Shown: one piece after another, positions 1 through 18,222 of the stretch
Layout of the letters: every line of letters starts with the position of its first letter
How positions within the stretch are numbered: the first letter of the stretch is position 1
Source: an uncultured Bacilli bacterium
GTDB lineage: Bacteria; Bacillota_I; Bacilli_A; RFN20; CAG-826
Assembly: GCA_944349595.1 (NCBI GenBank)
Contig: CALVNF010000002.1
Location: forward strand, 4,386 to 68,385
DNA length: 64,000 nt
Reading direction: 5' to 3'
Position numbers and translations under genes: made by a program
Notes under the pieces: model-generated
What the model saw: the letters and a program-made list of their open reading frames with translations, nothing else
Databases searched by the model: none
Told to the model about the DNA's origin: nothing

Positions 1-2847
1 CTAATCGATACTTTTAGCAAAATTAGAAGCAGAGGGCTCACCAAAGAAATATATGTGCCTAGAAAAGAACAACAAGACTGTATTAATGCATTAAAGAGAT
101 ATTTTGATAAACATCCTACTGGCGGTAGGTTCCTTTTAAACTGCAAGATGAGGTTTGGTAAGTCTTATACCACATATAAATATTGTGAAGAAGCTAATCT
201 TAGGAAAATTCTTATTCTTACTTTTATTCCTGCTGTTGAGTCTTCTTGGAAAGATGATTTAACACACATTAAAACTGAATATTTGTATTTAACGGACGAA
301 AATTTAAGACAGCCTCTTTTTCAATTATATTCTATAGATAAGCCTTATGTACTCTTTTTGTCGTTGCAGAACATGTTGGGCAAAGATAGAAATAACAATG
401 ATGTAAAAGATAAAATTAAGAAGTTAAAAGACGAACATTTTGATTTAGTAATATTAGATGAATATCACTTCGGTGCTTGGAATCAAAGAACTCAAGAAAA
501 ATTAGAGGATTTTGATCCTGAATATCAAAAAGAGTTAAGTAAGACAAAAGATGTAATTGATAAATTCGGTATTAAGACTGATAAAATTATTTGTTTATCT
601 GGTACTCCGTTTAAAGCTATTGCTAGGGGCGAATTTATTGAGGAGAATACTTTTACTTATTCGTATTTTGATGAGCAGAAGAACAAATATCCAAACGACG
701 ATATTACTCATCCTAACCCTCAATATGCTCAATTTCCAGATATGAAGATATTTGGTTATAACATGTCGGCTTTATTTGGCAATTTAACAGCCCAGGTATT
801 TTCTGATGATAAGATATTAGGAAAAAAATACTTTTCTTTGAATCGCTTCTTTGAGGTCAGAAAAGATAGCAGCGACACCGAACCTTATACATTTGTTTAT
901 GAAAAAGAAATCAAAAAATGGCTTGATATCATAAAAGGTCGTTCTGATTTTGGTCGTAATTTTCCATATTCTAAACAAGAAATGCTAGATAACAACAAGC
1001 ATACTTTATGGCTTATGCCTACAGTAAATTGTTGCATTGCAATGAGTTTGTTACTTGAAAAAGACGAATATTTTAACAAATATCAAATTATTAATCTCTC
1101 TTCTCCTGAAGTAGGTTCAGGTGTTGATGCTTATGATTTTTTGCTAGAAAACATTAATAAGGCTAATAACATAAATAAACTAGGCAGCATTGCATTAACA
1201 GTTAATAAATTAACAACAGGTGTAACCGTTAAAGATTGGTTTAGCGTCTTTGTACTAAAAGATTTAGCGTCACCTGAACAATATTTCCAATCTATATTTA
1301 GAATTCAAACTCCACTTGTAATAGATAGAGAAATAAAAAAGAAGGTTGGATATGTTTATGATTTTAACATTGATAGAGCCTCAGCCTTACTTCTAAGGTA
1401 TGCAGAAGAAACAGCTGATCAATCAGTTACTAAACTCCAAATTGCTAAGCTCATAGTTAAATATTTACCTATCTTTATGAATGGTGATATGGATAAGCCT
1501 ATCGAATATGAAGTGTTTTATCAATTAGCTCAATTTGGTGACCAAAGCAATGTACCTTTATCTAGAAAGATTACAAATCTTGAGGCTACTACGCATGCTT
1601 TAAATGAAGAAACTATGGCAGCAATGCTTAACGATCCTGAAGTCAGCGACATAATAAAAAGAGTTTTTGCTCACTCTAAATTAACTAAGAGTAAAGATAG
1701 AACAAAGCCTGCAAAGCCTGAACAAGATGGTTTTGAAACTGAAGTGGCGAAAAAAGGTCGAGATCTTGGTTATAGACTAGGGATGGAAGACTCAAAGAAT
1801 TATCTTGATTTAGATGATTCAGATGTTCAAAAAGCTTTCGAAGATAACATTGAAAAATATATCGCTGAAAACATGCCAAAAAAATACAGAGATAAAGAAA
1901 AAGTCTGGTATTCAAACGGATTTAAAAAAGGCTATGAAAGCGGAGTTAATGTTCCTATTAAGAAACTAAATTGTGGCTATGATGATGGCAAGAAATTTGT
2001 TGACGAGGTTAAGAAAAAATTCGGTGAAAATATTCATTATACAAGAGAGACTAGACCTCAAATAATGAACTTTACTAATCCATATTTAAATAACATCAAT
2101 CATATACCACTACAATATAGAGGAATGCTATATAAAAGATGGTACATTGAATCATTTGTGAGAGCAGTGAAAGATTGTTTGAGACCAGTTATAAAAGACG
2201 AAGATGGTGGAACAACAATAGATGATGCTGATAATGTGCTAAGACATATTTTAGCGAGGTTAGTTGAATTCTTATATATCAGTGTTTATAGAGAGACAAC
2301 ATTTAATGAAATATTTCAAAACGCTGACCCTAATGTATTCCTTGAGGCTGTTGGCATCCAAAAGAAGGAGTTTGAAACTTTAAACAAATATCGTGTCTTT
2401 GAAGAAAATACTCTTAATAACTATATTCATGAATTCTTTGTTAATGAATCTATTGGTAAAGACTTAACATCAAATGGGAAAGAGTCAGATCAATACCGAA
2501 ATAGTTTTGGCTGGTTTGGCTTTAATAAAATTGAGCAAGAAGTCAAAGATTATGTTAACGAAACAAATGCTAAAGCTGTTCAAGATGAAATTGCTTCTTA
2601 TAGTAATATGGTTAGCGCTGATGCCGATGCTGATTTAGATATTGAAGAAACACCACAAAGCGAAACTGCTAACGATGAGGATAGTTTAGAAGAGAGGATA
2701 ATATCTTTACTGAAAATTAACACTAAAGGTATGAGTTCTAAAAAGATAGCTAAAGCTTTGAGCGTTTCTAAAAAAGAAGTTAACAAAGTTCTTTATGAAA
2801 GCAAGAATAAATTCACTCAAGACTTTTTGTCATGGAAATTAAAGTGA
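1..2847 (+). CDS. Superfamily-2 DEAD/DEAH-type helicase family protein, 5' end outside the window, C-terminal winged-helix-like tail
   Basis: Frame 1 is open from position 1, and the listed GTG at 55 is only an internal alternative start. Motifs: Walker-A-like RFGKSYT, motif II VILDEYHFG (DExH), motif III LSGTP, motif VI-like QSIFRIQT. The C-terminus (KKIAKALSVSKKEVNKVL) looks like a wHTH. The ORF ends in TGA. Confidence 0.6.
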   Translation, partial: LIDTFSKIRSRGLTKEIYVPRKEQQDCINALKRYFDKHPTGGRFLLNCKMRFGKSYTTYKYCEEANLRKILILTFIPAVESSWKDDLTHIKTEYLYLTDENLRQPLFQLYSIDKPYVLFLSLQNMLGKDRNNNDVKDKIKKLKDEHFDLVILDEYHFGAWNQRTQEKLEDFDPEYQKELSKTKDVIDKFGIKTDKIICLSGTPFKAIARGEFIEENTFTYSYFDEQKNKYPNDDITHPNPQYAQFPDMKIFGYNMSALFGNLTAQVFSDDKILGKKYFSLNRFFEVRKDSSDTEPYTFVYEKEIKKWLDIIKGRSDFGRNFPYSKQEMLDNNKHTLWLMPTVNCCIAMSLLLEKDEYFNKYQIINLSSPEVGSGVDAYDFLLENINKANNINKLGSIALTVNKLTTGVTVKDWFSVFVLKDLASPEQYFQSIFRIQTPLVIDREIKKKVGYVYDFNIDRASALLLRYAEETADQSVTKLQIAKLIVKYLPIFMNGDMDKPIEYEVFYQLAQFGDQSNVPLSRKITNLEATTHALNEETMAAMLNDPEVSDIIKRVFAHSKLTKSKDRTKPAKPEQDGFETEVAKKGRDLGYRLGMEDSKNYLDLDDSDVQKAFEDNIEKYIAENMPKKYRDKEKVWYSNGFKKGYESGVNVPIKKLNCGYDDGKKFVDEVKKKFGENIHYTRETRPQIMNFTNPYLNNINHIPLQYRGMLYKRWYIESFVRAVKDCLRPVIKDEDGGTTIDDADNVLRHILARLVEFLYISVYRETTFNEIFQNADPNVFLEAVGIQKKEFETLNKYRVFEENTLNNYIHEFFVNESIGKDLTSNGKESDQYRNSFGWFGFNKIEQEVKDYVNETNAKAVQDEIASYSNMVSADADADLDIEETPQSETANDEDSLEERIISLLKINTKGMSSKKIAKALSVSKKEVNKVLYESKNKFTQDFLSWKLK

Positions 2848-2860
2848 GGGCAACTAACCT

Positions 2861-3154
2861 ATGGAAACTAAATCACAAGGAGTAATCTATATACTTACCA
2901 ACCCATCATTCCCTGATTACGTTAAGATTGGATAAGCTGACGATGTTCAAAAGCGTCTGAAGGAACTAAACAGGAGCGAGTGTATTCCTTTTGCTTTTAG
3001 GCTTTATGCTTATTATGAAGTTCCTAGAAGACTCACTGATATGAAGCTCCATCAAATGATAGATAAGTTAAATCCTAATCTTAGATCTATTGAGGAATTT
3101 GATGGTAAGACTAGAAAAAGTGAATATTCTAACGCTTCGGAGCTACCAGTTTAA
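2861..3154 (+). pseudogene. T5orf172 (GIY-YIG-like / MUG113-type) domain gene interrupted by an in-frame TAA
   Basis: ATG at 2861 gives METKSQGVIYILTNPSFPDYVKIG, then TAA at 2933-2935. The same frame continues as ADDVQKRLKELNRSECIPFAFRLYAYYEVPRRL...ELPV to a stop at 3152-3154. Together this is the canonical T5orf172 core (VIYILTN...KIGxxxxxxxRLxxLN). Confidence 0.6.
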
Positions 3155-3585
3155 AGCTAGAGAGCCATACCCTATTTAACTAATAATTTTGACCTTGAGA
3201 GCCATCTTTAAATTATATCCCCTAAAATATTTTTACTTGAGTTTTCATTGAGTAATTTCAACCATAATTCAGAAAAATATTATCTATAATATTTTTTAAG
3301 ACACACAATTATTCAATTTTTAAAACTTTAAATTCATATAAAAAAACATTATTTTTAGTATTATTTAATTAAGATTGATGAGTTTGGAACAAAAACGAAA
3401 ATTAATGATACATTTTTACCAACAATAGATTCTTTTAAAATTCAAAATGTAAGTAAAGACTTAAAACTAACAGAAAGAAAAAATAAATTAATAAGTGATA
3501 TCATCAGTTAAGCTAAAATTGTAATTTACAGATATTTAAAACATAATATATTATGTTTTTAATTAATATTTTTATAATAACGTGT

Positions 3586-3613
3586 TAATATTATTAAAAT
3601 TTTAATAATATTA
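3586..3613. promoter_or_regulatory. 28-bp perfect A/T palindrome (TAATATTATTAAAATTTTAATAATATTA) just upstream of the RBS of the 3631 gene; candidate operator
   Basis: Positions 3586-3613 are exactly self-complementary, centred between 3599 and 3600. An RBS (GGAG) lies at 3618-3621 and the ATG at 3631. Confidence 0.4.
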
Positions 3614-3630
3614 TATTGGAGTTTGTTATT

Positions 3631-5886
3631 ATGAAAAAAAGTAATGTATATTATGTATATAATCAATGTAAAGTTTGTAAAAATAGAAAAGAAAGAATTC
3701 AAATAATAAATGATTATCTTAAAGCTGGAAAAATTACAAAAAAAGAAGCGGAAGATATAAAAAGAAAATTAATTAAAAAACCAACTTCATATCTTGTTTA
3801 TAGCATTTTAAAAAAGTATTCATCTGTAAATAATAGATTAACAAGAGAAGATATTATTAAAAAAATTGAAGAGGATTATGGTGTTAAAATTGAATCAAAA
3901 GATACAATAAGTGCAGCCATAGAAGAAATTGGTTATATAAATTATGTTGATTTAAAAGAAAATACTTTTGATAAGTTTAATGAATCTACAATTGTAAAAG
4001 CGGGTAAAACTGGATTCTTTTTATTAGATAGTGAAAAATTATCTCTTGGAGAGATCGCTTTTATTGTAAATGCAATTTTATCATCGGTATCGCTAACTAA
4101 AAAAGAAAGTGAAGAATTCATCAAAAAAATATTAAAATTAGGAGAAAGCGATATTACTTTTCATGATTTATTAAATGTAAAAGAAAATTATAGTTATAAT
4201 TCATCACTAATTAAAATAGAAACTAATTCAACACTAGATAAATTATCATTATTAACTAGAGCTAAAGAAAATAAAAAAGATATAACTTTTGAAACAGGTG
4301 TAGGATTAATTAATAATGAAGTAGATTTAAAAAATGCATTTAATAACAAGAAAACAACAATTACTATGACTCCTTATTATATATTTTCTAAAAATGGTAA
4401 GGAAATTGTTATTGGCTCTGTTGCGAATACTAATTTTAATTATTTAAAACCAGAGAGTAATTTGAATCATAAATATCTAATATATTTATGTTATGTTCAA
4501 AACATGGAAAACATTCAAATATTAGATACTTCAACACCATTTAAAATTTATAACAAAATAAATTTTGATATGTTTATTTCTAAATTTATAAATGGAGAAA
4601 CATTTATAAAAGAAGGAACATTTCATCCAGCACAACTTAATATTATAAGGTATATATGTCTTGTAAAATCTATTTATGGACTTAAAATTTTAATTGATTT
4701 TTTTAACTTACCATTTAAAACTCAAAAACAAAAAAAGAAAATTAATATTAGTGAAGACATAAAAAATAGTTCTGTGATATCTTTAAGTAAAAGTGAACAA
4801 AATAAGCTTATAAAAGAAAGTAGTAAATATCGATATACGATCCGATTTAATACTGATTACTTTAAGATGGAATCATTTATTTCTTATATTAAAATGTATC
4901 AACTTGATTATTTAATTTTTAAAAAAGATATTTCAGGACCATTGAGAATTATTTATTCAAAAGAAGAATATCGCAAAGAACTAATTAATAAATATAATAT
5001 AGAAAATGAAAGAAATTATAAATTAACTTATATAGATAATTTAACTAAACTTCTTGCAATTAAATATAAAATTGGAGAAAAAAGTGATGAATTAAAACAT
5101 TATTTAATTAGAAATAAACTAATTGAAGAACCTCTTATTAACGGCAAATTAAAAATAGCAGAAAATTATTATTATGATAATTTTAAAAATAAATCAAATA
5201 AAGATATTTTTGAAAACTTAGATAATGATCAAATAATATATTTATATAGACATTTAAATTTTAAAGAATTAACTTATCTTGAATTAAATTTAGAATTTTT
5301 AAATGGTTTAAATATTCTTCAAAATTTAGATTTGAATTTAGATATAGATATTAACAATACATTTATAATTGGAGAAGAAAATAATAAATTAATTACATGT
5401 AATTTAGATAATATATGGTATCAAGGAATTTCTGGAGTTGGTAAAAGTACTTTTATTTCATCTCTAATAACAGATTTAATTAATTTAGATAATAATTATA
5501 AGTTTGTTATATATAATGATAAAGGTCTTTATGAATATGATGTAGATAAAGAATATTTATTAAAACCATTATTAAAAAATGCTGAAGAATTAATTAATTT
5601 TTTAAGTTCTTATCAAATAAATGATAATGAAAAGTTAGTTTTAATATTAGATGGAGCTGATTTTGATTTAACTTATCAATTAGGAATTAATAAATTAATA
5701 AATAAAATATTAACTGAAAAGAAGATTATATTAATATTAACAAGTCAAGGACAAGAATTTTTAACTAAAGAAAATTCTAATTTATTTAATATCAAAATCA
5801 ATAAAACAGAAAACAAAGAAAACGGCATAATTATAAATAAAGATAGTTATACTTATTCTATTATAAGATTTGAAGTATTTAGATAA
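3631..5886 (+). CDS. Large hypothetical protein: wHTH-like N-terminus, LRR-like repeats, C-terminal NB-ARC/STAND-like P-loop NTPase
   Basis: RBS TTGGAG precedes the ATG at 3631. The N-terminal segment LTREDIIKKIEEDYGVKIESKDTISAAIEEIGYI fits an HTH_11/DeoR-type wHTH. Residues around 520-580 (LNFKELTYLELNLEFLNGLNILQNLDLNLDIDINN) are LxxLxLxxN-like. Walker A is GISGVGKST and Walker B is LVLILDGADFD. Composition is extreme (K/N/I/Y rich, GC well below the housekeeping genes). Confidence 0.55.
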   Translation: MKKSNVYYVYNQCKVCKNRKERIQIINDYLKAGKITKKEAEDIKRKLIKKPTSYLVYSILKKYSSVNNRLTREDIIKKIEEDYGVKIESKDTISAAIEEIGYINYVDLKENTFDKFNESTIVKAGKTGFFLLDSEKLSLGEIAFIVNAILSSVSLTKKESEEFIKKILKLGESDITFHDLLNVKENYSYNSSLIKIETNSTLDKLSLLTRAKENKKDITFETGVGLINNEVDLKNAFNNKKTTITMTPYYIFSKNGKEIVIGSVANTNFNYLKPESNLNHKYLIYLCYVQNMENIQILDTSTPFKIYNKINFDMFISKFINGETFIKEGTFHPAQLNIIRYICLVKSIYGLKILIDFFNLPFKTQKQKKKINISEDIKNSSVISLSKSEQNKLIKESSKYRYTIRFNTDYFKMESFISYIKMYQLDYLIFKKDISGPLRIIYSKEEYRKELINKYNIENERNYKLTYIDNLTKLLAIKYKIGEKSDELKHYLIRNKLIEEPLINGKLKIAENYYYDNFKNKSNKDIFENLDNDQIIYLYRHLNFKELTYLELNLEFLNGLNILQNLDLNLDIDINNTFIIGEENNKLITCNLDNIWYQGISGVGKSTFISSLITDLINLDNNYKFVIYNDKGLYEYDVDKEYLLKPLLKNAEELINFLSSYQINDNEKLVLILDGADFDLTYQLGINKLINKILTEKKIILILTSQGQEFLTKENSNLFNIKINKTENKENGIIINKDSYTYSIIRFEVFR

Positions 5887-5891
5887 TACTT

Positions 5892-6557
5892 TTATAAATT
5901 ATTCATCATATTATTTTCTTTTCGATATTTATTGTATTCTTTAAATTTATCAGGGAATTTGTACACTATACAAATTACCATTATAAATTTCATATACATA
6001 CCAAAATTTTCAATTTTTTTATCATCAATTTCTCCACAAGTTAAAGCATTTAAGTTATTATACATATCAATAACTTTTACTAGACTTGCCGTTGGATTTA
6101 TAATTAGTTTAGATATATATTCATCATATGATTCACTTTTATTATGAGTTAATAGTAAAAGTGATGCTTTAATATTAACTTGAAAATAACTTAATAAATC
6201 AACTTCATTAAATAAATTTTCTAAATCATTTATTGTCAATTTTGTGTCTTCAATTATATCATGAAGACAACATAATTCTTGCACACCTCTATATGGTATT
6301 TCTAATTCGTCTAATTTATCTAAATCTATCGAATTAGGATTATTATTAATTCCAATTAAATCTTGATATAATTCCATACATCTAAGTGGATGAAAATAAT
6401 AATATTCTTCGTTTAATCTAACTTGATCTTGATGAGCATAATAAGCAATCATTATTGACAAAAATACACTATATTGAGATAACTCTTTTGCTTGGTCAAT
6501 TGTAATGTTTTTATGCTTACTATAATAATTAATTACTTCTCCATATAATTTATTCAT
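5892..6557 (-). CDS. Stand-alone HD-domain (p)ppGpp-hydrolase-like protein (small alarmone hydrolase, Rel/SpoT/Mesh1 family)
   Basis: Rel/SpoT hydrolase motifs: R-x-N-x3-YYYFHP (HD1), LCCLHDIIEDT (the HDxxED signature), and VKVIDMYNNLNAL (cf. LADRLHNMRTL). The start is placed at MNKLYGEV behind a GGAGGT RBS. Confidence 0.7.
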   Translation of the reverse strand: MNKLYGEVINYYSKHKNITIDQAKELSQYSVFLSIMIAYYAHQDQVRLNEEYYYFHPLRCMELYQDLIGINNNPNSIDLDKLDELEIPYRGVQELCCLHDIIEDTKLTINDLENLFNEVDLLSYFQVNIKASLLLLTHNKSESYDEYISKLIINPTASLVKVIDMYNNLNALTCGEIDDKKIENFGMYMKFIMVICIVYKFPDKFKEYNKYRKENNMMNNL

Positions 6558-6648
6558 TTTTTTACCTCCAGTAATTACAAAATAAATATAAAACATAAAT
6601 TATTAGTTTTGGTAAAATCTCATTTGACTAATATGGTATTATATAAAT

Positions 6649-7035
6649 ATGAGTTTAGAAGAATATATTAAATTTCATAAAACTAACAAAGAAAAATCAT
6701 TAGATTTTGTAAGTTATTTATATTATTTAATGGATAAATATAAATTTGATTCGGTAACTTTATATAATAAAGCAAATATTAGTAAGCAATTATTTTCTAG
6801 TGTAATATCTAATAAATCAAAACCAAGTATTAATTTTATTATCAAAATTGTCTTTGCAATGCATGTCAATAATCATGAATGTAAATATTTATTAAAAAAA
6901 GCTAATTTTACATTAGCTTCTAATTCTAATTATTCATTAATTATTCGTTATTTTATTGAAAGTAGTAATTTTGATTTAAATAAACTAAATGATGCTTTAA
7001 TAAAATACGGATATCAGGATAAAATAATTTATTAA
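6649..7035 (+). CDS. XRE-family helix-turn-helix protein, divergent from the HD hydrolase gene
   Basis: The central segment TLYNKANISKQLFSSVISNKSKPSINFIIKIVFAMHV matches the Cro/C1 HTH pattern (ISxxxxSxxxxxxxxPSxxxxxKIxxAL). Confidence 0.5.
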   Translation: MSLEEYIKFHKTNKEKSLDFVSYLYYLMDKYKFDSVTLYNKANISKQLFSSVISNKSKPSINFIIKIVFAMHVNNHECKYLLKKANFTLASNSNYSLIIRYFIESSNFDLNKLNDALIKYGYQDKIIY

Positions 7036-7118
7036 AAACATTAAATATTACGCTTTAATACAAACCTTAATAATAATTTTATTAATATGAAATAATATTT
7101 GTATTAGGAGATTTTAAA

Positions 7119-7271
7119 ATGAGTGAGATTAACAAAAACAATAATAATTTCAATATTGGTAATAAAGATACCGATGAAATTAATGAAGAGTTTGGAAATG
7201 AATTAAGAGATTTTTTTCAATCATTAATTGATGAAGAATTTGACGATGATGACGAAGATGATGAATATTAA
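7119..7271 (+). CDS. Small highly acidic protein (50 aa; C-terminus EEFDDDDEDDEY), not in the supplied ORF track
   Basis: AGGAG RBS at 7106-7110, ATG at 7119, and the ORF MSEINKNNNNFNIGNKDTDEINEEFGNELRDFFQSLIDEEFDDDDEDDEY runs to TAA at 7269-7271. It sits tightly upstream of the next gene. Confidence 0.45.
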   Translation: MSEINKNNNNFNIGNKDTDEINEEFGNELRDFFQSLIDEEFDDDDEDDEY

Positions 7272-7283
7272 TTGGAGGATTTT

Positions 7284-7574
7284 ATGAAAAAATATAGTTA
7301 TTTAATGTTTGTTGAAAGTGGTGAAGGACAAAGGGTTTATACAAGAAGAGATGGTATCAGATTAAGACTTGTTGGTGAAAAAGAAGATTATAATATTATT
7401 AATAATTTAAAATTTGATGAATGGAATTGCACAACCTTTAAAGATTTAGGAGAAGCAGGATATGATTTAATTCATGTTGTTAATTCAGGAATTTTCTTAA
7501 ATAAAGGTTCTTCTAGAGAAGGTGGAGTTCTTGAAATTGCTTATTTATTTAAAGCGGAATTTGAAGAAAATTAA
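7284..7574 (+). CDS. Hypothetical small protein (96 aa)
   Basis: RBS TTGGAGGA at 7272-7279 and ATG at 7284 (MKKYSYLMFVESGEGQRVYTRRDGIRLRL...). Likely co-transcribed with the acidic ORF. Confidence 0.5.
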   Translation: MKKYSYLMFVESGEGQRVYTRRDGIRLRLVGEKEDYNIINNLKFDEWNCTTFKDLGEAGYDLIHVVNSGIFLNKGSSREGGVLEIAYLFKAEFEEN

Positions 7575-7682
7575 ATAAATTATAAAAAAACATTAATTTA
7601 AATTATTTTAATTAATAAAAATAACTTTATATATATTTGCTCATAAAGAGTAAAATAATTATATATAAAGGTGGTCTTTAAT

Positions 7683-9992
7683 ATGCCAAAAAAATTTAAA
7701 AGTTTAAGTTTTATAATAATAGCTCTATTTTTAAGTTTATCTAGTATTTCTTCTTGCAATAATACTTATCAAAATACGACATCAGTTGTTCAATATGTTT
7801 TAGATATTGAAAATGGAGAAGAAGTTCAATTAAAAGTTAATGACACTCTTCAATTAAATATATCAAGTCAAAATTTAACCGAAACAATAATTTATACTTC
7901 ATCAGATCCAAGTGTTGTAAGTGTCAGTAATACTGGTTTAATAACTGCCTTAAGTGAAGGAGAAAGTTTTATTACTGCAAGTGCTAATAATACATCAGAT
8001 ACAATTAAAGTTCTTGTTAGTAAAAATACAACAATTTTAAATCCTAGTATTGAAATTCTTGATGGAGATGAGCTTAGTTTAGAAATTGAACAAACTTATA
8101 AATTAAATGTTAAAACCGAAAACATAACTGAAGATTTAGTATTTTCTTCTCAAAATGAATTTATTGCAAAAGTTGATAATTCTGGTTTAATTACTGCCAT
8201 AAGTAAGGGTGAAACATTAATTGAAGTAAAAGCTAACAATGTTAAAGATCTAATAAAAATTATTGTAAAAGAAAAAACAATAACTCCTACACCTGTTTTG
8301 GAAATATTAACCCCAGATAATAGTGAATTAGAAGTTGAAAGTAGTTTACAACTTAATTTGAAAACTGAAAATTTAACTGAAGATGTTACTTATTCATCTT
8401 CTAATAATGAAATTGCGACAATTTCAAATACTGGTTTAATAAGTGGCATTTCAAAAGGCAGCGTCACAATTAGTGCTTCAGCCAATGGAATTAGTGATTC
8501 AATAAATATAATTGTTAAAGAAAAAGAAGTTCCTCCAAGTTTAGTTATTTTAAATGGAGAAGAAATAACATTAAATTTAGGTGATACTTTACAATTAAAT
8601 GTTAGTTTAGAAAATATTGAAGGTTCAATATTATATGAAAGTAATAATTCTAATGTTGCAAGTGTTAATCAAAGTGGATTAATTAGTGCAATTAAAGAAG
8701 GTGAAGCAATAATAACAGCTTCTATTGATGAAGTTAAAGATAGTATTAAAGTTACAGTAGTTCCAAATGAAGATGGTAGTGTTCAATATTATGAACATAT
8801 CTTTAATAAAGATGATTTTAATGGAGGATCTACAAGTGCAGGAAGCTTTTCTTCAAATGGTTTAACTTGGAATTATGATGCTTTTAATTATTTAGGTCAA
8901 GATTATGAAGGAATTCAAATTGGATCTAATAGTAAACCTCATAAAACTCCATGGAATATAGTTACTCAATTTAATGGTGAAGTGACAGTTTTATCTTATG
9001 AATTAATCATTAAAACAAACTCACCTGCTAGATATGATGTAACAATGGATAACTATAGCCATGGAGAGAATTTACCAAAAGAAAATATTGCAAAACTTTG
9101 GGGAGAAAATGATATATCAATTGATACAACCTCATTTAAATTATCGTTATCTAATCAAACAAAAGCCATTTATTTATATAGTGTTAGTTTAAAAGTATTT
9201 GTTCCAAGTGATGTAGATTTAAATTTAAAGAAACCTGAAATTGATTTAGTTGCAGCAAAACCTGGAGAAGGAGTTGTTCCAAATGCAAACTATACATTAA
9301 CTAGTAAAGAAGATTATTATAAAGATATTGATTTTGAAGCAGATTCAACAATATTAAAAAATGAATTACATTCTTTAATTTCAAATATGACAAAAATTAA
9401 TTATGGAACAGTTTCTAATACAATTATTTATACCGATGAAAGTATTAAAAAACCAGGTGTTTTATATGGTATGTTTGATGGAGATGAATTAAGTGCAAGC
9501 TATAATGGAACATGGAATAAAGAACATGTCTGGCCATGTTCTTTAATGAAAGAAAACGGAAAAGATCCTCGACCATCAGATTCAACTAAAAATCATGCAA
9601 CTGATTTATTTAATTTAAGAGCATGTTGTCAAACAACAAATGGTTTACATGGAAATAAATTTTATGATAATACAGATTCAAGTAATACATTTTTTCCAAA
9701 TGTAGCAAATAATGGTAGTGTATTACATAAATTTGAAGGTGATCATAGAGGTGATGTTGCAAGAATTTTATTTTATATGGCTTTAAGATATGACTTTTTA
9801 AGTATTGTTGAAGATATTAATAATGCAACAGATACTCAAATTGGAAAACTTTCTGTTTTATTAAAGTGGAATGAATTAGATCCAGTAGATGATTTTGAAA
9901 TTCAAAGAAATAATAGAATTTATGAATTTCAAGGAAACAGAAATCCATTTATTGATTATCCTGAATTAGTTGACAAATTATATTCAATTTAA
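7683..9992 (+). CDS. Surface lipoprotein nuclease: signal peptide + lipobox, 4x Big_2 Ig-like repeats, C-terminal Endonuclease-I (EndA/Dns) domain
   Basis: RBS AAAGGTGG then ATG at 7683. Lipobox SISSC. Four roughly 95-aa repeats of the form VxSVSNTGLITAxSEGExxITASANNxSDxIKVxV (Big_2). The C-terminus carries WNKEHVWP, NLRAC...N, GDVARILFYMALRY and GNRNPFIDYPEL, which are Endonuclease_1 family hallmarks. Confidence 0.85.
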   Translation: MPKKFKSLSFIIIALFLSLSSISSCNNTYQNTTSVVQYVLDIENGEEVQLKVNDTLQLNISSQNLTETIIYTSSDPSVVSVSNTGLITALSEGESFITASANNTSDTIKVLVSKNTTILNPSIEILDGDELSLEIEQTYKLNVKTENITEDLVFSSQNEFIAKVDNSGLITAISKGETLIEVKANNVKDLIKIIVKEKTITPTPVLEILTPDNSELEVESSLQLNLKTENLTEDVTYSSSNNEIATISNTGLISGISKGSVTISASANGISDSINIIVKEKEVPPSLVILNGEEITLNLGDTLQLNVSLENIEGSILYESNNSNVASVNQSGLISAIKEGEAIITASIDEVKDSIKVTVVPNEDGSVQYYEHIFNKDDFNGGSTSAGSFSSNGLTWNYDAFNYLGQDYEGIQIGSNSKPHKTPWNIVTQFNGEVTVLSYELIIKTNSPARYDVTMDNYSHGENLPKENIAKLWGENDISIDTTSFKLSLSNQTKAIYLYSVSLKVFVPSDVDLNLKKPEIDLVAAKPGEGVVPNANYTLTSKEDYYKDIDFEADSTILKNELHSLISNMTKINYGTVSNTIIYTDESIKKPGVLYGMFDGDELSASYNGTWNKEHVWPCSLMKENGKDPRPSDSTKNHATDLFNLRACCQTTNGLHGNKFYDNTDSSNTFFPNVANNGSVLHKFEGDHRGDVARILFYMALRYDFLSIVEDINNATDTQIGKLSVLLKWNELDPVDDFEIQRNNRIYEFQGNRNPFIDYPELVDKLYSI

Positions 9993-10038
9993 ATAAAAAA
10001 AATTTGAATTTCATTTTTTTGTTATAATTAATGTGTAA

Positions 10039-10821
10039 ATGAAAAAGAAAAACCTATTACTATTACTTCCAACAATTTTAACGATTACTTCTTGTAAGTT
10101 TGATTTTCTTTTTGATAAATATAAGTTAACAGTTGTTGATAATTGGGATCTTTTATATGAAATGCCAAAATTAACTTATAATGAAGGTGATGTTATTGAA
10201 GTAAAACTTCAATTTAGATCTGGTCCTAGAGTTGGTTTATTATTTGAAGGAGAAAATTATTATTTAGGTAATTATACTTTTGATGAACATAACAATCCAC
10301 TTTATTTTACAGTGAATTTAACAATGCCAGATTATGATACTACTTTATATACAACTTTTAATGGATTAGTGGAATCTCCATATGATTCTTATACAAGTTT
10401 TGAAATAAATTATGACTATAATTTTATTTCAAATCAAAATAAAGCAACTTTATTATATGGATATACATTACCTTTTTTAGATAAGTCTAAATATGAAGAA
10501 TTAAATACATTAATTGGTGGCGATTTACTTTATTTATATTATAATGGTAATTTTTTAATTAAAGAAACTTATCCTGGAGCGGTAGAATTAGCTAATGATT
10601 TTGAAGTAATTGACTTACTTGTTATTAAGGCAGATTTAAAAGAAATAAGCTATGATGAATACTTAACAATTAAAGATGAATTACCAGAAAACATTATTTT
10701 AAATAATGATTTAGAATACGAATCAGTAGAAGATTATTTTAAAAATAATGATAAAGCATATGTTTCTTCTAAAGATAATAAATATTATGCTTTATATTCA
10801 TATTTACCTAGAAATAATTAA
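10039..10821 (+). CDS. Hypothetical lipoprotein
   Basis: N-terminus MKKKNLLLLLPTILTITSCKF (lipobox ITSC). Confidence 0.6.
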   Translation: MKKKNLLLLLPTILTITSCKFDFLFDKYKLTVVDNWDLLYEMPKLTYNEGDVIEVKLQFRSGPRVGLLFEGENYYLGNYTFDEHNNPLYFTVNLTMPDYDTTLYTTFNGLVESPYDSYTSFEINYDYNFISNQNKATLLYGYTLPFLDKSKYEELNTLIGGDLLYLYYNGNFLIKETYPGAVELANDFEVIDLLVIKADLKEISYDEYLTIKDELPENIILNNDLEYESVEDYFKNNDKAYVSSKDNKYYALYSYLPRNN

Positions 10822-10908
10822 TAAAAACTCATTTATTAAATATTAAATTAATATACAAATATAAATAAAAAAACAATAATAAATAAAGTATCAAAATAAT
10901 TAAAATTA

Positions 10909-11754
10909 ATGCCTTATTTTTTTATTTTAATTGACAATATAATTGTTTATCATTGCGTTTTATGTTTTAATAATTTTGTGAATACATTAAGCGTTAGAAA
11001 TTTAACTAAAAAATTTAAAATAAATCAAAAACAACAAAAAAATAATAAAAGCAACGCGCAATATTTAACAGCATTAAAAGATTTTTCAATGGATTTTAAA
11101 GAAGGAAATATTTATGGTATTTTAGGACCAAATGGTGCTGGAAAAACGACATTACTTAGAATTTTGTCTTCTTTAATTCAACCTAATAGTGGAGAAATTT
11201 TTTATAATGATAAAAAAATAACTGGTGATGCTTTAGAATATAAAAGTAAAGTTGGTTTTTTAACAAGTGAACTAAAATTAGATGACTTTTTTACTCCAGA
11301 TTACACTTTTACATATTTTTCTAAATTATATGGAATATCTGATGAAGATACAATTAAAAATAAAGAAAAATTATTTAAAGAATTTGAAATTGATAAATAT
11401 AAAGATACTAAAATTTGTAATTTATCTACTGGAATGAAGCAAAAAGTATATTTAGCAATTTCTTTATGTAATAATCCAGATATTATCATTTTTGATGAAC
11501 CTACGAACGGTCTTGATTTAATTGGTTGTAAATATGTTGAAGATTATTTACTAAATTTGAAAAAACAAAATAAAATTATTATTGTCTCAACTCATATTTT
11601 TTCATTAATTGAAGATTTATGCGATGAAATTGCAATAATATTAAATGGTTCAAAAGTTCTAGAAGGAAATTTAAATGAATTAACAAAAAATAAATCCTTA
11701 AGTGATCTATTTTTTGAATTATATGAAAAAGAAGAAAAAGGAGTAAAGAATTGA
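10909..11754 (+). CDS. ABC transporter ATP-binding protein
   Basis: Walker A GPNGAGKTT, signature LSTGMKQKV, Walker B IIIFDEPTNGLD. The start is uncertain (a GTG at 10978 is possible). The ORF ends in TGA overlapping the next gene. Confidence 0.85.
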   Translation: MPYFFILIDNIIVYHCVLCFNNFVNTLSVRNLTKKFKINQKQQKNNKSNAQYLTALKDFSMDFKEGNIYGILGPNGAGKTTLLRILSSLIQPNSGEIFYNDKKITGDALEYKSKVGFLTSELKLDDFFTPDYTFTYFSKLYGISDEDTIKNKEKLFKEFEIDKYKDTKICNLSTGMKQKVYLAISLCNNPDIIIFDEPTNGLDLIGCKYVEDYLLNLKKQNKIIIVSTHIFSLIEDLCDEIAIILNGSKVLEGNLNELTKNKSLSDLFFELYEKEEKGVKN

Positions 11755-12968
11755 AAAATATAAAGGTAATATTTTTAAAAGAAATTAAGCGATATTTTAC
11801 TGAACCAAGAATGTTGCTTGCTTTGTTTTTACCAGGAATTTTAATTTATATTTTGTATTCTTTTTTAGGACCTTTTGTTAATTCGAATTTTACTGCAACT
11901 TCAAATCAACCTCAAAATTATGAATATAAAATTGTCGCAACCAATAATTATAATAATCAAGAAGATGCAGCACCTTTGGTTTTTGACGTATTTGATTCTT
12001 ATTTGAAAGTTAGTGAAAAAACTAATAGCATTAAATATTTTTATATAGATCCAAGTAAAATCGATCAATATAAAAATGAATTAATAAATGATAAATATGA
12101 TTTATTAGTAATTTTTGATGACGATTTTGAAAATAAATTATTTGAAAATAAACTAACAAGTAAAACGAATGTATCAATTTATTATAATGGAAGTAGTTCA
12201 GAGTCATCTTATTTATATAATATTTTTTCTGCAATTGTTAAAGAAACTTATACTAATTTCACAACTAATTTTGAAAATAATATAATTACTAATCCAAATT
12301 TATCTAATGAAGACTACAATATGAAAAATATTATGAGTTTTATTATTCCATTAATTACAATATCATTATTATTTTCAACAATATCTTCAATTTGTCCTGA
12401 AACAATTGCGGGAGAAAAAGAAAGAGGAACTTTAGCTAGTATTTTAATGACACCAATTAAAAGAAATGAATTAGTTATAGGAAAAATTTTAGCTATCACT
12501 TTAACAAGTGTAGCAAGCGGTCTTACATCTTTTGTTGGTTTAATTTTATCTCTTCCAAAATTATATGGAGAAGGAAGTAGTTTAAGTAGTATATTTTCAG
12601 TCGGTTCATTTATTTTGTTACTATTTTTAATTGTAACTTCAATGTTATTATTTGTTTCAATTGGTTTATTAATATCAGCTTTAACAAAGTCAAGAAGAGA
12701 AGCATCAAGTTATTTAATTCCATTTTCTTCTATATTAATAGTCTTATCAATTATTCCATTTGTTTTAGATTTGACAAATATAGGTTACTCATTTATTCCA
12801 ATTTTAAATATTGTTTCATCAATGAATTTTATAATTAAAACTTCTAATATAGATTCTTTAATTCCATATTTAAGTATTACAATTGTTATTAATATTTTAT
12901 TATCAATTATTATTGTATTTATTGTTTCAAAATTGTTTAAAAAAGAAAACATAATGTTTCAACGATAG
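11751..12968 (+). CDS. ABC-2 family transporter permease
   Basis: Starts at a TTG overlapping the upstream stop. It is multi-TM, with a large extracytoplasmic loop after TM1 typical of the ABC-2/NatB-like group. Confidence 0.7.
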   Translation: MKNIKVIFLKEIKRYFTEPRMLLALFLPGILIYILYSFLGPFVNSNFTATSNQPQNYEYKIVATNNYNNQEDAAPLVFDVFDSYLKVSEKTNSIKYFYIDPSKIDQYKNELINDKYDLLVIFDDDFENKLFENKLTSKTNVSIYYNGSSSESSYLYNIFSAIVKETYTNFTTNFENNIITNPNLSNEDYNMKNIMSFIIPLITISLLFSTISSICPETIAGEKERGTLASILMTPIKRNELVIGKILAITLTSVASGLTSFVGLILSLPKLYGEGSSLSSIFSVGSFILLLFLIVTSMLLFVSIGLLISALTKSRREASSYLIPFSSILIVLSIIPFVLDLTNIGYSFIPILNIVSSMNFIIKTSNIDSLIPYLSITIVINILLSIIIVFIVSKLFKKENIMFQR

Positions 12969-13078
12969 TCGTCGATTTTTAAAAATATTAAAGATATGCT
13001 ATAATAATTAAGCAAGACTTATAGATAATAAAACATTACTTTATTATCTTTTTCTTTAATGTTTTTAGGAGGTATTTA

Positions 13079-13588
13079 ATGATGAAAAAAGAATTAAAAA
13101 GCATTGAATTAGATGATTTAAAAGAATTACAAACGATGTTAAAAGATTTTTGGACAACACAACTCGTAGAAGCAAGTAAAGCAGATATTTTAGAAGATAT
13201 TAGAAGATTATTAAGCCCGAAATGTTATTCTTATTTAATAATGTGTGATGATAATATTGCGGGTTTTATATATATTAATGAAAAATATGGATATGTTAAT
13301 AACATTGAATATTTATATATAAAAGAAAAATTTAGAGGTAATGGATTAGGATCTTTTGCTTTAAGTAAAATTAAAGAAATATTGAAAGAAGACGGATTAG
13401 ATAGAGTTCAAATAGAAGTAAATCCATCAAATTTAAAGACTTTAAAACTTTATCATTCACTTGGTTTTAATAATATTGATACATTAACTTTATCAACTGG
13501 AATTGTTGGAGATACTGAAGTTAAAAATATTTTTGGTTTAGATTTTAAAATAAATAAATTAAGTTTATTTGCACATAAAAAACAATAA
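13079..13588 (+). CDS. GNAT family N-acetyltransferase
   Basis: AGGAGG RBS. Motif A is RGNGLGSFAL within an IEYLYIKEKFRGNGLG context. Confidence 0.75.
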   Translation: MMKKELKSIELDDLKELQTMLKDFWTTQLVEASKADILEDIRRLLSPKCYSYLIMCDDNIAGFIYINEKYGYVNNIEYLYIKEKFRGNGLGSFALSKIKEILKEDGLDRVQIEVNPSNLKTLKLYHSLGFNNIDTLTLSTGIVGDTEVKNIFGLDFKINKLSLFAHKKQ

Positions 13589-13616
13589 AAACTCTGCAAA
13601 ACCTCAATATTTTTTA
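13587..13616 (-). repeat. Copy A of the dispersed ~30-bp repeat (minus orientation), just after the GNAT stop
   Basis: Plus strand reads aaaactctgcaaaacctcaatattttttaag, the reverse complement of AAAAAATATTGAGGTTTTGCAGAGTTTT. Confidence 0.8.
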
Positions 13617-13690
13617 AGAAAAGTAGTTTTTAAGTAGTTTTTTAGGATTGTATTAGTATATTTTTGACAATTTTTTAGTATAATAAAAAC

Positions 13691-14248
13691 ATGAAAAAAA
13701 GTGTTTTACTAAATTTGCTAGTGTCATTATTTTTAATTACGGGATGTCAAACATCTTATAAATTAAATTATGATGTTAGCTTGATTTATGGAATTGGAAA
13801 ATATCCAAGGTGGGCAGATTTGTTAGAAGAGCCAAATCATGATGAAAACTATTTTAGATATATTGATATGAAATTATTTTCTTCGTTAGATGATTTGCTA
13901 AATTATTTAAACAATCCATATTATTTTAAATATGAAACAAATAATGAATATATTAAAGTTAGAATAGAAAATGAAATTGATTTTAGCAAATTAAATTTAC
14001 TTGTTACTTGTAAATATGAGGGTACAGGTTCATATGTTCATTTTGCAAATGTGAAAGATAATAAAGTGAACATTTATTCATATTGTGGAGAGGTTGTTAC
14101 TGAAGATATTGCCTTTAAAAGTTTAATTATTCCAGTTAAGAAAGAATATAATTTGGATGAGATAGAGGTAAAATATCATTATGAAATTTTAAAAGCAGAA
14201 GATATTGCAAATATCTGTAAAACTTATGGTAATAAATACTATTATTAA
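13691..14248 (+). CDS. Hypothetical lipoprotein
   Basis: MKKSVLLNLLVSLFLITGCQ (lipobox ITGC). Confidence 0.6.
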   Translation: MKKSVLLNLLVSLFLITGCQTSYKLNYDVSLIYGIGKYPRWADLLEEPNHDENYFRYIDMKLFSSLDDLLNYLNNPYYFKYETNNEYIKVRIENEIDFSKLNLLVTCKYEGTGSYVHFANVKDNKVNIYSYCGEVVTEDIAFKSLIIPVKKEYNLDEIEVKYHYEILKAEDIANICKTYGNKYYY

Positions 14249-14274
14249 AAGCAAAAATTAATTATAATTTTTAT

Positions 14275-14949
14275 ATGAAAAAAATTGACGATAAATATTT
14301 TATTAAAGATAAAAAAGTAAACTATAATCCTTCAATTGAACAAGTGCTTACAAATGATGAAGTTATTCTTTGGAAAGGAAAACCAAGGAAATTATCTTTT
14401 ATTTTATCTATCATTTTCAAATTTTTACCATTTGTTATTATATGGCTAGCAATTGATATATCTTTAATTGTAATGATGTCTAGTTTTTTCTCTGAGATAC
14501 CATTGCCTGGAATTATTTTTTTGATAATCTTTTTTATCTTACATTTATTACCAGTTTGGATATGGATTTCTTCTATAATTACTGCCTCAAGAAGACAAAA
14601 ATTAGAAGAATATGCCTTTACTGGAAGTAGAATTATTATTAAAACTGGTTTTATTGGTGCAAATATATCTAGTATTAATTATTCATCAATTTCTAGTGTA
14701 AATTTAAAGATTGGAATTATTGAAAGATTATGTAAAGTTGGAGATATTTATATTGTTGCGGATAATAAAAAATATATTTTAGAAGATATTAAAGATCCAT
14801 ATTTTATTTATGAAAAATTACAAAAAATAGCTAATGATATAAAATCAGATATAATTTATCCAAATAATTATCGACCTAGTGAAAATAATGGCTATAAAAC
14901 AAGTTATAATCCAAAAGAAGTTGATAAAATTATTAAAAAAGATAAATAA
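14275..14949 (+). CDS. Membrane protein with a bacterial PH-like (YdbS/YdbT, DUF304-type) domain
   Basis: DEVILWKGKP motif followed by two TM helices, the DUF304-like arrangement. Confidence 0.45.
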   Translation: MKKIDDKYFIKDKKVNYNPSIEQVLTNDEVILWKGKPRKLSFILSIIFKFLPFVIIWLAIDISLIVMMSSFFSEIPLPGIIFLIIFFILHLLPVWIWISSIITASRRQKLEEYAFTGSRIIIKTGFIGANISSINYSSISSVNLKIGIIERLCKVGDIYIVADNKKYILEDIKDPYFIYEKLQKIANDIKSDIIYPNNYRPSENNGYKTSYNPKEVDKIIKKDK

Positions 14950-14954
14950 ATTAT

Positions 14955-17832: not shown

Positions 17833-18222
17833 ATGAAAATAGTAAATGTAGTTGCGGCAATAATAGTTAAAAATGATTTAATTTTTATAACTCAAAGAGG
17901 TTATGGGGAATTTAAAGACGGTTGGGAATTTCCAGGTGGAAAAATAGAAGAAAACGAAACTCCTGAAAATGCCTTAAAAAGAGAGATTAAAGAAGAATTA
18001 AATGCTGATATTGAAGTTGACAATTTCTTGATGGACATTGATTATGATTATCCAAACTTTCATCTACATATGAAAGTTTATTTTTGTCATTTATTAAAAC
18101 CTCATATTGAATTATTAGAACATGAAAATGCATTATGGGTTAAAAAAGAAGATTTAAAAAATATTAATTTTTTACCAGCTGATAAATTAATTATTAAAAA
18201 TATATTGAATTTAAAAATTTAA
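17833..18222 (+). CDS. NUDIX hydrolase (MutT-like)
   Basis: Nudix box GGKIEENETPENALKREIKEELN. The start lies 1 nt after the stop of the PLD-helicase gene. Confidence 0.8.
   Translation: MKIVNVVAAIIVKNDLIFITQRGYGEFKDGWEFPGGKIEENETPENALKREIKEELNADIEVDNFLMDIDYDYPNFHLHMKVYFCHLLKPHIELLEHENALWVKKEDLKNINFLPADKLIIKNILNLKI

Follow-up and report, generated by a model that had tools for sequence, protein, structure and literature searches.

A probable composite locus in an uncultured Bacilli bacterium: a variable defence slot beside resident genes for a WYL-domain protein and an alarmone hydrolase

Positions 1-7600 of a 64,000-nucleotide stretch of the genome of an uncultured Bacilli bacterium (GenBank assembly GCA_944349595.1, contig CALVNF010000002.1, positions 4,386 to 68,385 of the forward strand; hereafter the window) encode a helicase, a T5orf172 pseudogene, a 751-amino-acid (aa) protein with a predicted winged helix-turn-helix (wHTH) and WYL module, a predicted small alarmone hydrolase (SAH) and three small proteins. 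An earlier note had described this block as a defence/anti-defence island. Our analysis indicates that it is probably a composite (probability roughly 0.68), in which imported restriction-modification (R-M) cargo occupies a variable defence slot beside resident, lineage-specific genes that include one for a putatively autorepressed WYL protein. The first part, which would be strain-variable and horizontally acquired defence cargo, extends from at least 4.1 kb upstream of position 1 to about 3120. The second part, which would be resident lineage-specific DNA, extends from 3504 to 7574 and onward, and its link to defence is circumstantial. The earlier observation is thus partly confirmed and its interpretation partly supported, the locus being an ordinary defence hotspot and not one mobile defence/anti-defence island.

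The genome was read with translation table 11, and long open reading frames (ORFs) run throughout the window, the GC content of which is 24.0%. The features considered here, with the source of each assignment, are listed below.

1-2847, + strand: superfamily 2 (SF2)/ResIII helicase ORF, left end open (Pfam, PADLOC)
2861-3154, + strand: T5orf172(-RAMA) pseudogene (Pfam, PADLOC)
3118-3375, no strand: junction element (81% identity to positions 9393-9647 of the related contig L032)
3504-3630, + strand: start of the conserved block and promoter region of the 751-aa gene (blastn)
3538-3559, no strand: 22-bp perfect dyad AAAACATAATATATTATGTTTT, putative operator (conserved in relatives)
3586-3613, no strand: 28-bp perfect palindrome TAATATTATTAAAATTTTAATAATATTA (the longest in the 64 kb)
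3631-5886, + strand: 751-aa wHTH-WYL protein with a P-loop-like C-terminal domain (hhalign, blastp)
5892-6557, - strand: 221-aa RelA/SpoT-type HD pyrophosphohydrolase, a predicted small alarmone hydrolase, convergent (PDB, PHROGs)
6649-7035, + strand: 128-aa protein with a predicted XRE-type helix-turn-helix (HTH) core (AlphaFold2 model and Foldseek)
7119-7271, + strand: 50-aa acidic peptide (ORF, conserved in relatives)
7284-7574, + strand: 96-aa protein (ORF, conserved in relatives)
7683-9992, + strand: 769-aa protein with Big_2 repeats and Endonuclease I, the next gene (Pfam Big_2 4e-32, Endonuclease_1 2.4e-26)

Composition, synteny and the variable slot

The two parts differ in base composition. 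GC content is 28-35% from about 3250 leftwards to the end of L030, an ENA contig found by exact-protein look-up that is 100% identical to window 1-16557 and extends 4,109 bp further upstream, and it is 17-23% over 3.3-7.6 kb. For GC at third codon positions (GC3), the 48 genes beyond 10 kb served as background (0.108 +/- 0.026). The helicase (GC 0.31, GC3 0.238, z = +4.9) and the T5orf172 remnant (GC 0.35, GC3 0.276, z = +6.4) lie far above this background, contrary to the suggestion that the block as a whole is lower in GC than the core genes. All other block genes are at most about 1.6 standard deviations (SD) from background, and the genes for the 751-aa protein, the hydrolase, the 128-aa protein and the 96-aa protein (GC3 0.077-0.117) are within 1.2 SD of it. 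The 476-bp gap at 3155-3630, which had been called almost pure A/T, is indeed AT-rich, with 18.7% GC versus 24.0% for the window, but does not fit that description.

Contigs of relatives were found via homologs of the 751-aa protein and the hydrolase (86-94% protein identity); they are metagenome contigs from one narrow clade, with protein identities of 86-100%. Nucleotide homology to these relatives begins at window position 3504 in blastn, which marks a common right boundary of the variable DNA. From this point identity is 92-95% across L032, L036, L037, L038 and L045, the last of which joins the alignment near 3504, and from 3504 to at least 15.9 kb both the identity (92-93%) and the gene order are maintained in L032, L036, L037 and L038. 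The gene order is the same in six of six sampled relatives when L045 and L047 are included. Relative to two of these genomes, dN/dS is 0.15-0.41 for the block genes and 0.0-0.25 for downstream genes; the block genes are thus real and under purifying selection, although with lower amino-acid identity and somewhat relaxed selection compared with their downstream neighbours. Each block gene has 20-28 cluster members, versus 27 for the neighbouring acyltransferase gene. Taken together, native composition, dN/dS and synteny argue that the DNA from 3504 onward is not variable cargo. The expectation that the block would be variably present among relatives therefore holds for positions 1 to about 3120, but not for 3504-7600, which is syntenic and conserved in every sampled relative. 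Because sampling is confined to a narrow clade, resident here means fixed within that clade, not ancient.

Directly upstream of the 751/754-aa gene, the window genome and its relatives carry four types of cargo: (i) the R-M cassette of the window genome; (ii) in L036 and L037, a tyrosine recombinase, an MqsA-type HTH protein and Type I hsdM/S/R genes; (iii) in L045, a differently organised Type I system with an HsdR of 1035 aa and a methyltransferase (MTase) of 568 aa; and (iv) in L032 and L047, a MazG-like gene and an SLFN-g3/DUF2075 helicase (PDC-S41/AbiO-like; split in L032), preceded by a tRNA-synthetase (tRNA-synt_1c) gene and other core genes. Since the same slot holds different defence genes in relatives, it qualifies as a defence hotspot. 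Chromosomal defence hotspots consist of variable defence cargo between conserved core flanks. The present slot resembles them in that four unrelated defence cargos occupy one position with a shared right boundary at about 3504, and in that one variant carries a tyrosine recombinase. It differs from typical hotspots in that the right-flank gene encodes a WYL-domain protein rather than a housekeeping protein, and in that remnants resembling the inverted repeats of miniature inverted-repeat transposable elements (MITEs) lie at the slot junction. The right flank is conserved in all relatives, whereas the left flank, with the tRNA-synt_1c gene, is seen in L032 and L047 only; with the left flank known from a single cargo type, the slot in the window genome is bounded on one side only. 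Exchange of cargo would likely proceed by recombination in the conserved flanks.

Regarding mobility, the window contains no tRNA genes, and a search of 2700-7700 against Rfam gave no match. The statement that the window lacks an integrase or transposase was upheld in a limited test, in which tblastn of the window with one tyrosine integrase and one HTH_Tnp protein returned nothing. The suspicion that the accessory region continues upstream of position 1 was correct, as the additional 4,109 bp of L030 consist of cargo.

The imported restriction-modification cassette

The helicase had been recognised correctly as an SF2 protein (Pfam ResIII, 2.6e-7) whose ORF at 1-2847 is open at the left edge. 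In L030 the full-length protein has 1091 aa, of which the window holds the 3' 948 codons, and it is preceded by genes for a 64-aa HTH_3 protein, a 222-aa MTase-N-like protein and a 563-aa Eco57I-type MTase. The latter matches Pfam Eco57I, carries the motif IISNPPYQ (NPPY) and matches PADLOC MTase_II at 1.9e-45. The helicase matches the PADLOC profile REase_MTase_IIG (PDLC03626) at an E value of about 1.3e-30, and this single profile of 1359 positions covers both the helicase (159-593) and the MTase (1005-1320). The cassette is therefore the split counterpart of an enzyme in which helicase and methyltransferase are fused.

LlaGI, LlaBIII and other Type ISP enzymes are fused helicase-methyltransferase R-M enzymes that carry an Mrr-type PD-(D/E)xK nuclease domain. 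Like the Type IIG/ISP enzymes, the cassette combines an SF2 helicase-like ATPase with a gamma-class N6-adenine MTase of the Eco57I type. Unlike these single polypeptides, it divides the functions between a Mod-like (563 aa) and a Res-like (1091 aa) gene, in the mod-then-res order of Type III systems. A fused, 1452-aa form is encoded behind a 230-aa N6-MTase on the conjugative Lactococcus lactis plasmid NZ_CP065987, and in the cassette, too, a small N6-MTase-like gene precedes the enzyme. Further differences from the Type IIG/ISP enzymes are a wHTH-like segment that forms a C-terminal tail of the Res-like subunit, and an accessory T5orf172-RAMA gene (PDC-S57) that is a pseudogene. An XRE-type, controller-like HTH is encoded at the 5' end of the cassette. 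In place of the Mrr-type domain, the Res-like subunit may have an N-terminal GIY-YIG/T5orf172-like nuclease domain, encoded upstream of the window: the N-terminal 151 aa of the helicase match T5orf172 over the full length but weakly (E 0.16), and plasmid homologs of the helicase (27-31% identity) carry a GIY-YIG nuclease annotation. Because it depends on this E value and on annotations of such distant homologs, the nuclease assignment is tentative. By inference from these sequence matches, the cassette may work as a split version of a Type IIG/ISP-like enzyme, in which the MTase would mark host DNA and the ATP-driven helicase/nuclease subunit would attack unmodified DNA.

The cassette occurs in other hosts. 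Four Logan contigs, L039-L042 (ERR4087790-93), contain 6,023 bp of it (window -3096 to 2925) at 98.3% identity; there, this segment is flanked by rubrerythrin, DUF2188 and YqeY genes on the left and by a 194-aa gene and HTH_Tnp on the right, at about 30% GC; outside the cassette these contigs have no other similarity to the window. Such identity with different flanking genes points to recent horizontal transfer between different hosts. In L039-L042 gene calling breaks the MTase and the helicase into two to three pieces that vary per sample (for example 192/99/232 aa, or 676 + 410 aa); either the cassette is decaying in that host or the assemblies contain errors. An operon comprising a gene of about 225-330 aa, an Eco57I MTase (about 570 aa), a helicase (about 1100 aa) and a T5orf172-RAMA protein (about 225 aa) was found at 54-71% identity in 27 species-representative genomes, which include metagenome-assembled genomes of gut Bacilli/Mollicutes as well as bins labelled Bacteroides, Dialister, Faecalibacterium and Hallerella and thus span several phyla; the operon is also present in one IMG/VR contig. 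Further upstream, a second cassette (window -4109 to -3254) is 96.7% identical to the unrelated JGI contig L046. Both of its genes are intact in L046 (190 and 145 aa); in the source genome the second is broken into pieces of 59 and 83 aa. This split gene (L030 19965-20401, window about -3400 to -3850; L046 7547-7984) encodes an RNYYAH motif (Rx4H, HEPN-like), with faint Pfam HEPN hints (E about 0.1), and a homolog of it adjoins the R-M operon in L003 (tblastx 2e-15).

The T5orf172 gene that follows the helicase had been called nonsense-disrupted, which is accurate: codon 25 is TAA where the intact homologs L003 and L005 have Tyr (VKIGY). In addition, the gene is truncated at its 3' end, after about codon 85 of about 225-230, with loss of the RAMA-like C-terminus. 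The fragment matches Pfam T5orf172 (5.4e-11) and the PADLOC candidate PDC-S57 (PDLC05043, 2.1e-45), and it shares 90% identity across about 84 residues with the intact 230-aa protein of L003, which itself matches PDC-S57 over its full length (1.1e-80). Thus, the fragment is like PDC-S57, a single-gene T5orf172 protein, in matching its profile, and unlike it in being an interrupted, truncated remnant; unlike the stand-alone PDC-S57, the T5orf172 gene of relatives closes the R-M operon. Identity to the L039 cassette stops at 2925, within this gene.

The truncation point coincides exactly with the start (about 3121) of the junction element at 3118-3375. In L032, an inverted copy of the first approximately 93 bp of this element (9880-9788) lies about 400 bp away, and the window has one arm only. 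No other copy was found in the window, nor any Rfam match to the element. From its sequence, it looks like a MITE-like inverted-repeat remnant. Two independent Logan assemblies of the same sequence, L001 and L002, end inside the AT-rich junction, at window positions 3339 and 3476. Coexistence in those samples of strains that differ in cargo would produce such ends, and so might poor coverage of AT-rich DNA.

These observations bear on the possibility that all of 1-7600 is one mobile accessory defence/anti-defence island that moves as a unit. Genes of classes common in immune islands do adjoin one another here, with variable cargo alongside, and the block genes, which are confined to the lineage, evolve faster than those around them. 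However, composition and homology break sharply at about 3120-3504, positions 3504-7574 are syntenic in all sampled relatives regardless of cargo, and the imported cassette occurs elsewhere without the block genes. At the locus of P0008, a 42%-identical homolog of the 751-aa protein, there is no linkage to an SAH, XRE-like, acidic-peptide or 96-aa gene, and the small proteins of the window have neither a PADLOC hit nor a mobile-element context. A single travelling island is therefore very improbable. The PADLOC search that had been proposed for the block assigned the helicase and MTase (REase_MTase_IIG) and the T5orf172 fragment (PDC-S57), and gave no meaningful match for the 751-aa, SAH, 128-aa, 50-aa and 96-aa proteins.

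The wHTH-WYL protein and its putative operator

The resident part begins with the gene for the 751-aa protein, which had been described as a wHTH-LRR-P-loop protein and, in part, as a STAND-like NTPase (signal transduction ATPase with numerous domains). Homologs are rare: a search of 5.8e9 proteins yielded eight, and a search of 1.84e9 representatives yielded 19 hits; only two clusters are full length. The weaker hits are proteins of 270-350 aa with Pfam WYL and WCX domains (WYL above the cut-off), and in hhalign residues 49-318 align to wHTH-WYL-WCX regulators with a probability of 99.1% (E 6.9e-19). The alignment ends at template column 245 of 337, before the WCX domain. A WYL protein encoded on contig L034 also matches the 751-aa protein by blastp (1.3e-9). 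Conservation within the 751-aa protein is highest in the N-terminal region, which includes the wHTH, and the dN/dS of the gene is 0.26-0.30.

The remaining approximately 430 aa (residues ~340-751) form an orphan region, homologs of which are fragments only. Toward its C-terminus lie a Walker A motif, GISGVGKST (residues ~600-608), and a Walker B motif, LVLILDGAD. Both are retained in close homologs and lost in P0008, which reads SKNRSDRLT and IVFVIE--D at these positions. The wHTH and the Walker motifs of the earlier description thus stand; the leucine-rich repeats (LRR) do not, as Pfam and the other family collections gave no LRR hit in the protein and the region is modelled as short helices. 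An AlphaFold2 (AF2) model from an alignment of seven sequences was of low confidence, with a predicted local distance difference test score (pLDDT) of 52 and a predicted template-modelling score of 0.29. With this poor model, Foldseek returned weak AAA+ hits only (E 0.006 or worse), which are no more than consistent with a P-loop domain. The STAND-like assignment was not confirmed: NACHT (18 bits, against a threshold of 26.7) and NB-ARC (13.9 bits, against 23.5) both score too low, with E values of 0.002-0.03, the NTPase-like part occupies the very C-terminus, no sensor repeats follow it, and Walker A is absent from P0008. On sequence grounds, the description should read as a wHTH-WYL module fused to an orphan C-terminal region with a P-loop, and the best explanation of its architecture would be that the protein has lost WCX and gained the orphan P-loop region.

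A perfect 22-bp dyad, AAAACATAA-N4-TTATGTTTT, is located at 3538-3559 and overlaps a promoter-like -10 element. The best promoter-like match is TTTACA (3525), a spacer of 16-18 nt and TATATT or TATTAT, with the -10 element ending at 3552 or 3554. The dyad is unique in the window (0.06 copies expected at three or fewer mismatches), is identical in L032 and L045 and has two mismatches in L036. At the P0008 locus, where 0.13 copies would be expected, there are three with zero or one mismatch. They sit between genes, in front of an AAA-M41 gene, a 107-aa gene and the LRR_5 operon to which P0008 belongs, and so suggest a small regulon there. Given its position at the promoter, its conservation and its recurrence at the P0008 locus, the dyad is a putative operator of an autorepressed gene. 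BrxR autorepression has been demonstrated (PMC9122601), and by analogy the wHTH-WYL protein probably binds the dyad and represses its own gene; again by analogy with BrxR/CapW, the WYL domain would act as a ligand sensor.

The P0008 locus itself (L034/L035) has the homolog behind two LRR_5 genes, with Macro, WYL, YjbR-like and HTH genes and two AAA-Peptidase_M41 paralogs in its surroundings.

The likeness to BrxR/CapW (PMC9122601) has three parts: the wHTH and WYL module, an inverted repeat that overlaps the promoter of the regulator's own gene, and the direct adjacency of that gene to defence systems. There are also differences. BrxR has about 295 aa, compared with 751 aa here, and its WCX domain is replaced by the ~430-aa orphan region with Walker motifs. 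The 751-aa gene lies downstream of variable cargo, and its dyad is absent from that cargo. Moreover, 97% of BrxR homologues are proteobacterial (PMC9122601), whereas the host of the 751-aa protein belongs to a low-GC, Bacillota-like lineage. Control of the cargo by the WYL protein was considered and rejected: no copy of the dyad occurs in the R-M cassette or in the L036 and L045 cargos, that is, in any cargo examined, so by the evidence of sequence the 751-aa protein does not appear to regulate it.

The second palindrome of the promoter region, TAATATTATTAAAATTTTAATAATATTA at 3586-3613, lies 18 bp upstream of the start of the 751-aa gene, after the promoter-like site and before the ribosome-binding site. 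The window has no second copy of it; perfect arms of at least 14 nt arise in 0.05% of simulations of 476-bp sequences, and L036 has matching changes in both arms. The palindrome could be a second operator or a hairpin in the 5' untranslated region. A half-site of the dyad at 6590, in the divergent promoter region of the SAH and 128-aa genes, is not significant, as the window contains 15 half-sites versus about 8 expected. A promoter scan found 52 sites versus 51.7 expected from shuffled sequences, and no terminators; it is thus uninformative on operon structure.

The alarmone hydrolase, the small proteins and the resident neighbourhood

The identification of the convergent 221-aa gene as an SAH was borne out. 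Its product is a RelA/SpoT-type HD hydrolase, the best PDB match of which is 7smg (Aph1, a (p)ppApp hydrolase; E 6.3e-11), with the greatest similarity in the C-terminal half, the part by which the Aph family is defined; Rel/SpoT chains follow at 3e-4 to 7e-3. It also matches phrog_990 (1.9e-21) and, below the cut-off, NCBIfam spoT_relA (1.7e-5). The HxxQxR, HP, HD, ED and DxxN motifs are all present, with an insertion of about 35 residues between the HP and HD motifs. The protein is an active-looking small alarmone hydrolase. A word-indexed search retrieved four clusters, at 85-100% identity.

Substrate preference may differ from that of Aph1. The specificity signature of Aph1 consists of D24, R96, D116, R119, K133 and Y134 (PMC10083569). 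The corresponding residues are R47, K150, N170, T173, M187 and Y188, so about one to two of six are kept: unlike Aph1, with which it shares the HD-domain RelA/SpoT hydrolase core, the protein retains only the Tyr, and Lys in place of Arg. As the D24R/R119A variant of Aph1 gained ppGpp hydrolysis in vitro (PMC10083569), activity on ppGpp or on both alarmones is plausible for the hydrolase. It also differs from Aph1 in its insertion and in having no adjacent (p)ppApp-synthetase toxin or MuF gene; among the scanned neighbours no alarmone synthetase was found. A toxSAS/SAH toxin-antitoxin pair was considered and rejected, since no RelA_SpoT synthetase domain occurs in the scanned neighbours and the SAH is unlinked to P0008.

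The 128-aa protein had been called an XRE regulator, an assignment that holds at the level of fold and finds no significant sequence-family match. Its AF2 model has a pLDDT of 73, with a core at residues 20-84 (pLDDT 78-90) and a C-terminal helical extension. The top Foldseek hits are all XRE HTH proteins (DdrO, 434 Cro, C.AhdI and SinR), with target template-modelling scores of 0.6-0.79 and root-mean-square deviations of 1.7-2.6 Å, but E values of 0.04-1. By sequence, there was no Pfam, NCBIfam or PADLOC hit, SinR was matched at an E value of 1, and comparison of the family with three local HTH_3 proteins in hhalign reached only 0.1%, owing to the shallow depth of the alignments. At the fold level the model is consistent with a five-helix XRE-type HTH; dN/dS is 0.15-0.22.

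Both the acidic peptide and the 96-aa protein are present as reported. Of the 50 residues of the peptide, 19 are D or E (38%; isoelectric point 4.05), dN/dS is about 0.32, and the peptide has 45-50 aa in relatives. It has no Pfam, NCBIfam or PADLOC hit and one marginal PHROG match (E 0.0024) to a family of unknown function; in PHROGs, the 128-aa protein likewise matches such families only. The peptide is like anti-defence DNA mimics in being small and strongly acidic. Unlike them, it is encoded in a fixed chromosomal block of native composition, with no homology to known inhibitors. As the small genes lack a link to mobile elements, the anti-defence role proposed for this block is unsupported. 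The 96-aa protein has no match in Pfam, NCBIfam, PADLOC or PDB and a dN/dS of 0.36-0.41. Its gene is frameshifted in the relative L047 (9002-9288), with residues 1-18 and 17-96 in different frames; either the gene has truly become a pseudogene there or the contig is in error.

Further downstream, the Big_2-Endonuclease I gene is syntenic in all relatives. Beyond it, a 958-aa PLD-helicase-DUF3427 protein (14955-17831) gives a full-length PADLOC mREase_IV match (2.6e-186) and is directly followed by a 129-aa NUDIX protein (17833-18222; candidate PDC-S07, 1.7e-48). These two genes are syntenic in relatives and thus form a conserved defence locus outside the block flagged at first. A choloylglycine (bile-salt) hydrolase family protein at 18919-19875 (Pfam CBAH, 1.2e-81) is consistent with a gut-dwelling organism.

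Two further accounts of the resident part need to be weighed. According to one, it serves ordinary lineage-specific regulation and physiology and lies beside the defence slot by coincidence: the 751-aa protein would be a transcription factor, the hydrolase a housekeeping (p)ppGpp hydrolase suited to a small genome, and the small genes an XRE-regulated operon leading into a nucleotide-scavenging secreted nuclease. The native composition, fixed synteny and purifying selection agree with this account, as do the Arg at the position of Aph1 D24 and the Thr at that of R119, a direction of change that broadens Aph1 towards ppGpp in vitro, and the 128-aa, 50-aa and 96-aa genes are close to, and co-oriented with, the Big_2-Endonuclease I gene. 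It fits less well that all five genes are near-orphans (8 and 4 clusters among 5.8e9 proteins), which is unusual for housekeeping functions, that WYL proteins are enriched near defence genes, and that four defence cargos abut the WYL gene. Overall we regard this account as a genuine possibility, though the less likely outcome.

According to the other, 3504 to about 18.2 kb is an old, lineage-fixed part of the same defence island, of which the upstream slot is the latest exchanged end; the WYL-P-loop protein would be a self-regulated sensor-effector, and the SAH would give protection from alarmone-synthetase toxins or from defence based on alarmones. The mREase_IV and NUDIX genes downstream speak for this, as do the raised dN/dS compared with neighbouring genes and the Macro, WYL, AAA-M41 and LRR_5 genes of the P0008 locus. 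Of the BrxR homologues, which are WYL regulators, 48-61% co-localise with defence systems (PMC9122601), and Aph1-type hydrolases can confer immunity to (p)ppApp-synthetase toxins (PMC10083569). However, an ABC transporter, a GNAT gene and a secreted nuclease, all non-defence genes, lie in between, the scanned neighbours include no alarmone synthetase, Walker A is lost in P0008 and the Aph1 signature is not kept, and no known defence model matches the 751-aa, SAH, 128-aa, 50-aa and 96-aa proteins. An old, fixed part of one island is thus unlikely. It is more doubtful still, and in our view speculative, that the 751-aa protein is a new type of self-repressed sensor-effector in one polypeptide that permanently anchors the hotspot, with the hydrolase and the XRE-like, acidic and 96-aa proteins forming a previously undescribed nucleotide-signal-linked immunity module.

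Several points weigh against our preferred reading of the block as imported cargo beside resident genes: (i) the block genes evolve faster than their downstream neighbours, which would fit conflict-related genes as well; (ii) all compared relatives come from the same narrow clade; (iii) the left flank of the slot is documented for one cargo type; (iv) the pairing of dyad and protein rests on co-occurrence in two lineages only; (v) the model of the 751-aa protein is poor (pLDDT 52); and (vi) the nuclease domain of the Res-like subunit leans on a weak T5orf172 match and distant plasmid annotations.

The main value of the composite reading is corrective, in that two units should be annotated here and not one island. 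Each component falls in an already described category, and the hotspot, with its new cassette member, is an arrangement of a known kind. What stands out most is the WYL fusion, in which an orphan P-loop region replaces WCX, together with its conserved dyad; the fusion marks the fixed edge of the hotspot in this uncultured, low-GC gut bacterium. The AAAACATAA-N4-TTATGTTTT dyad and the wHTH-WYL protein provide a testable operator-regulator pair, and if the 751-aa protein were a sensor-effector, the known roles of WYL proteins would be extended.

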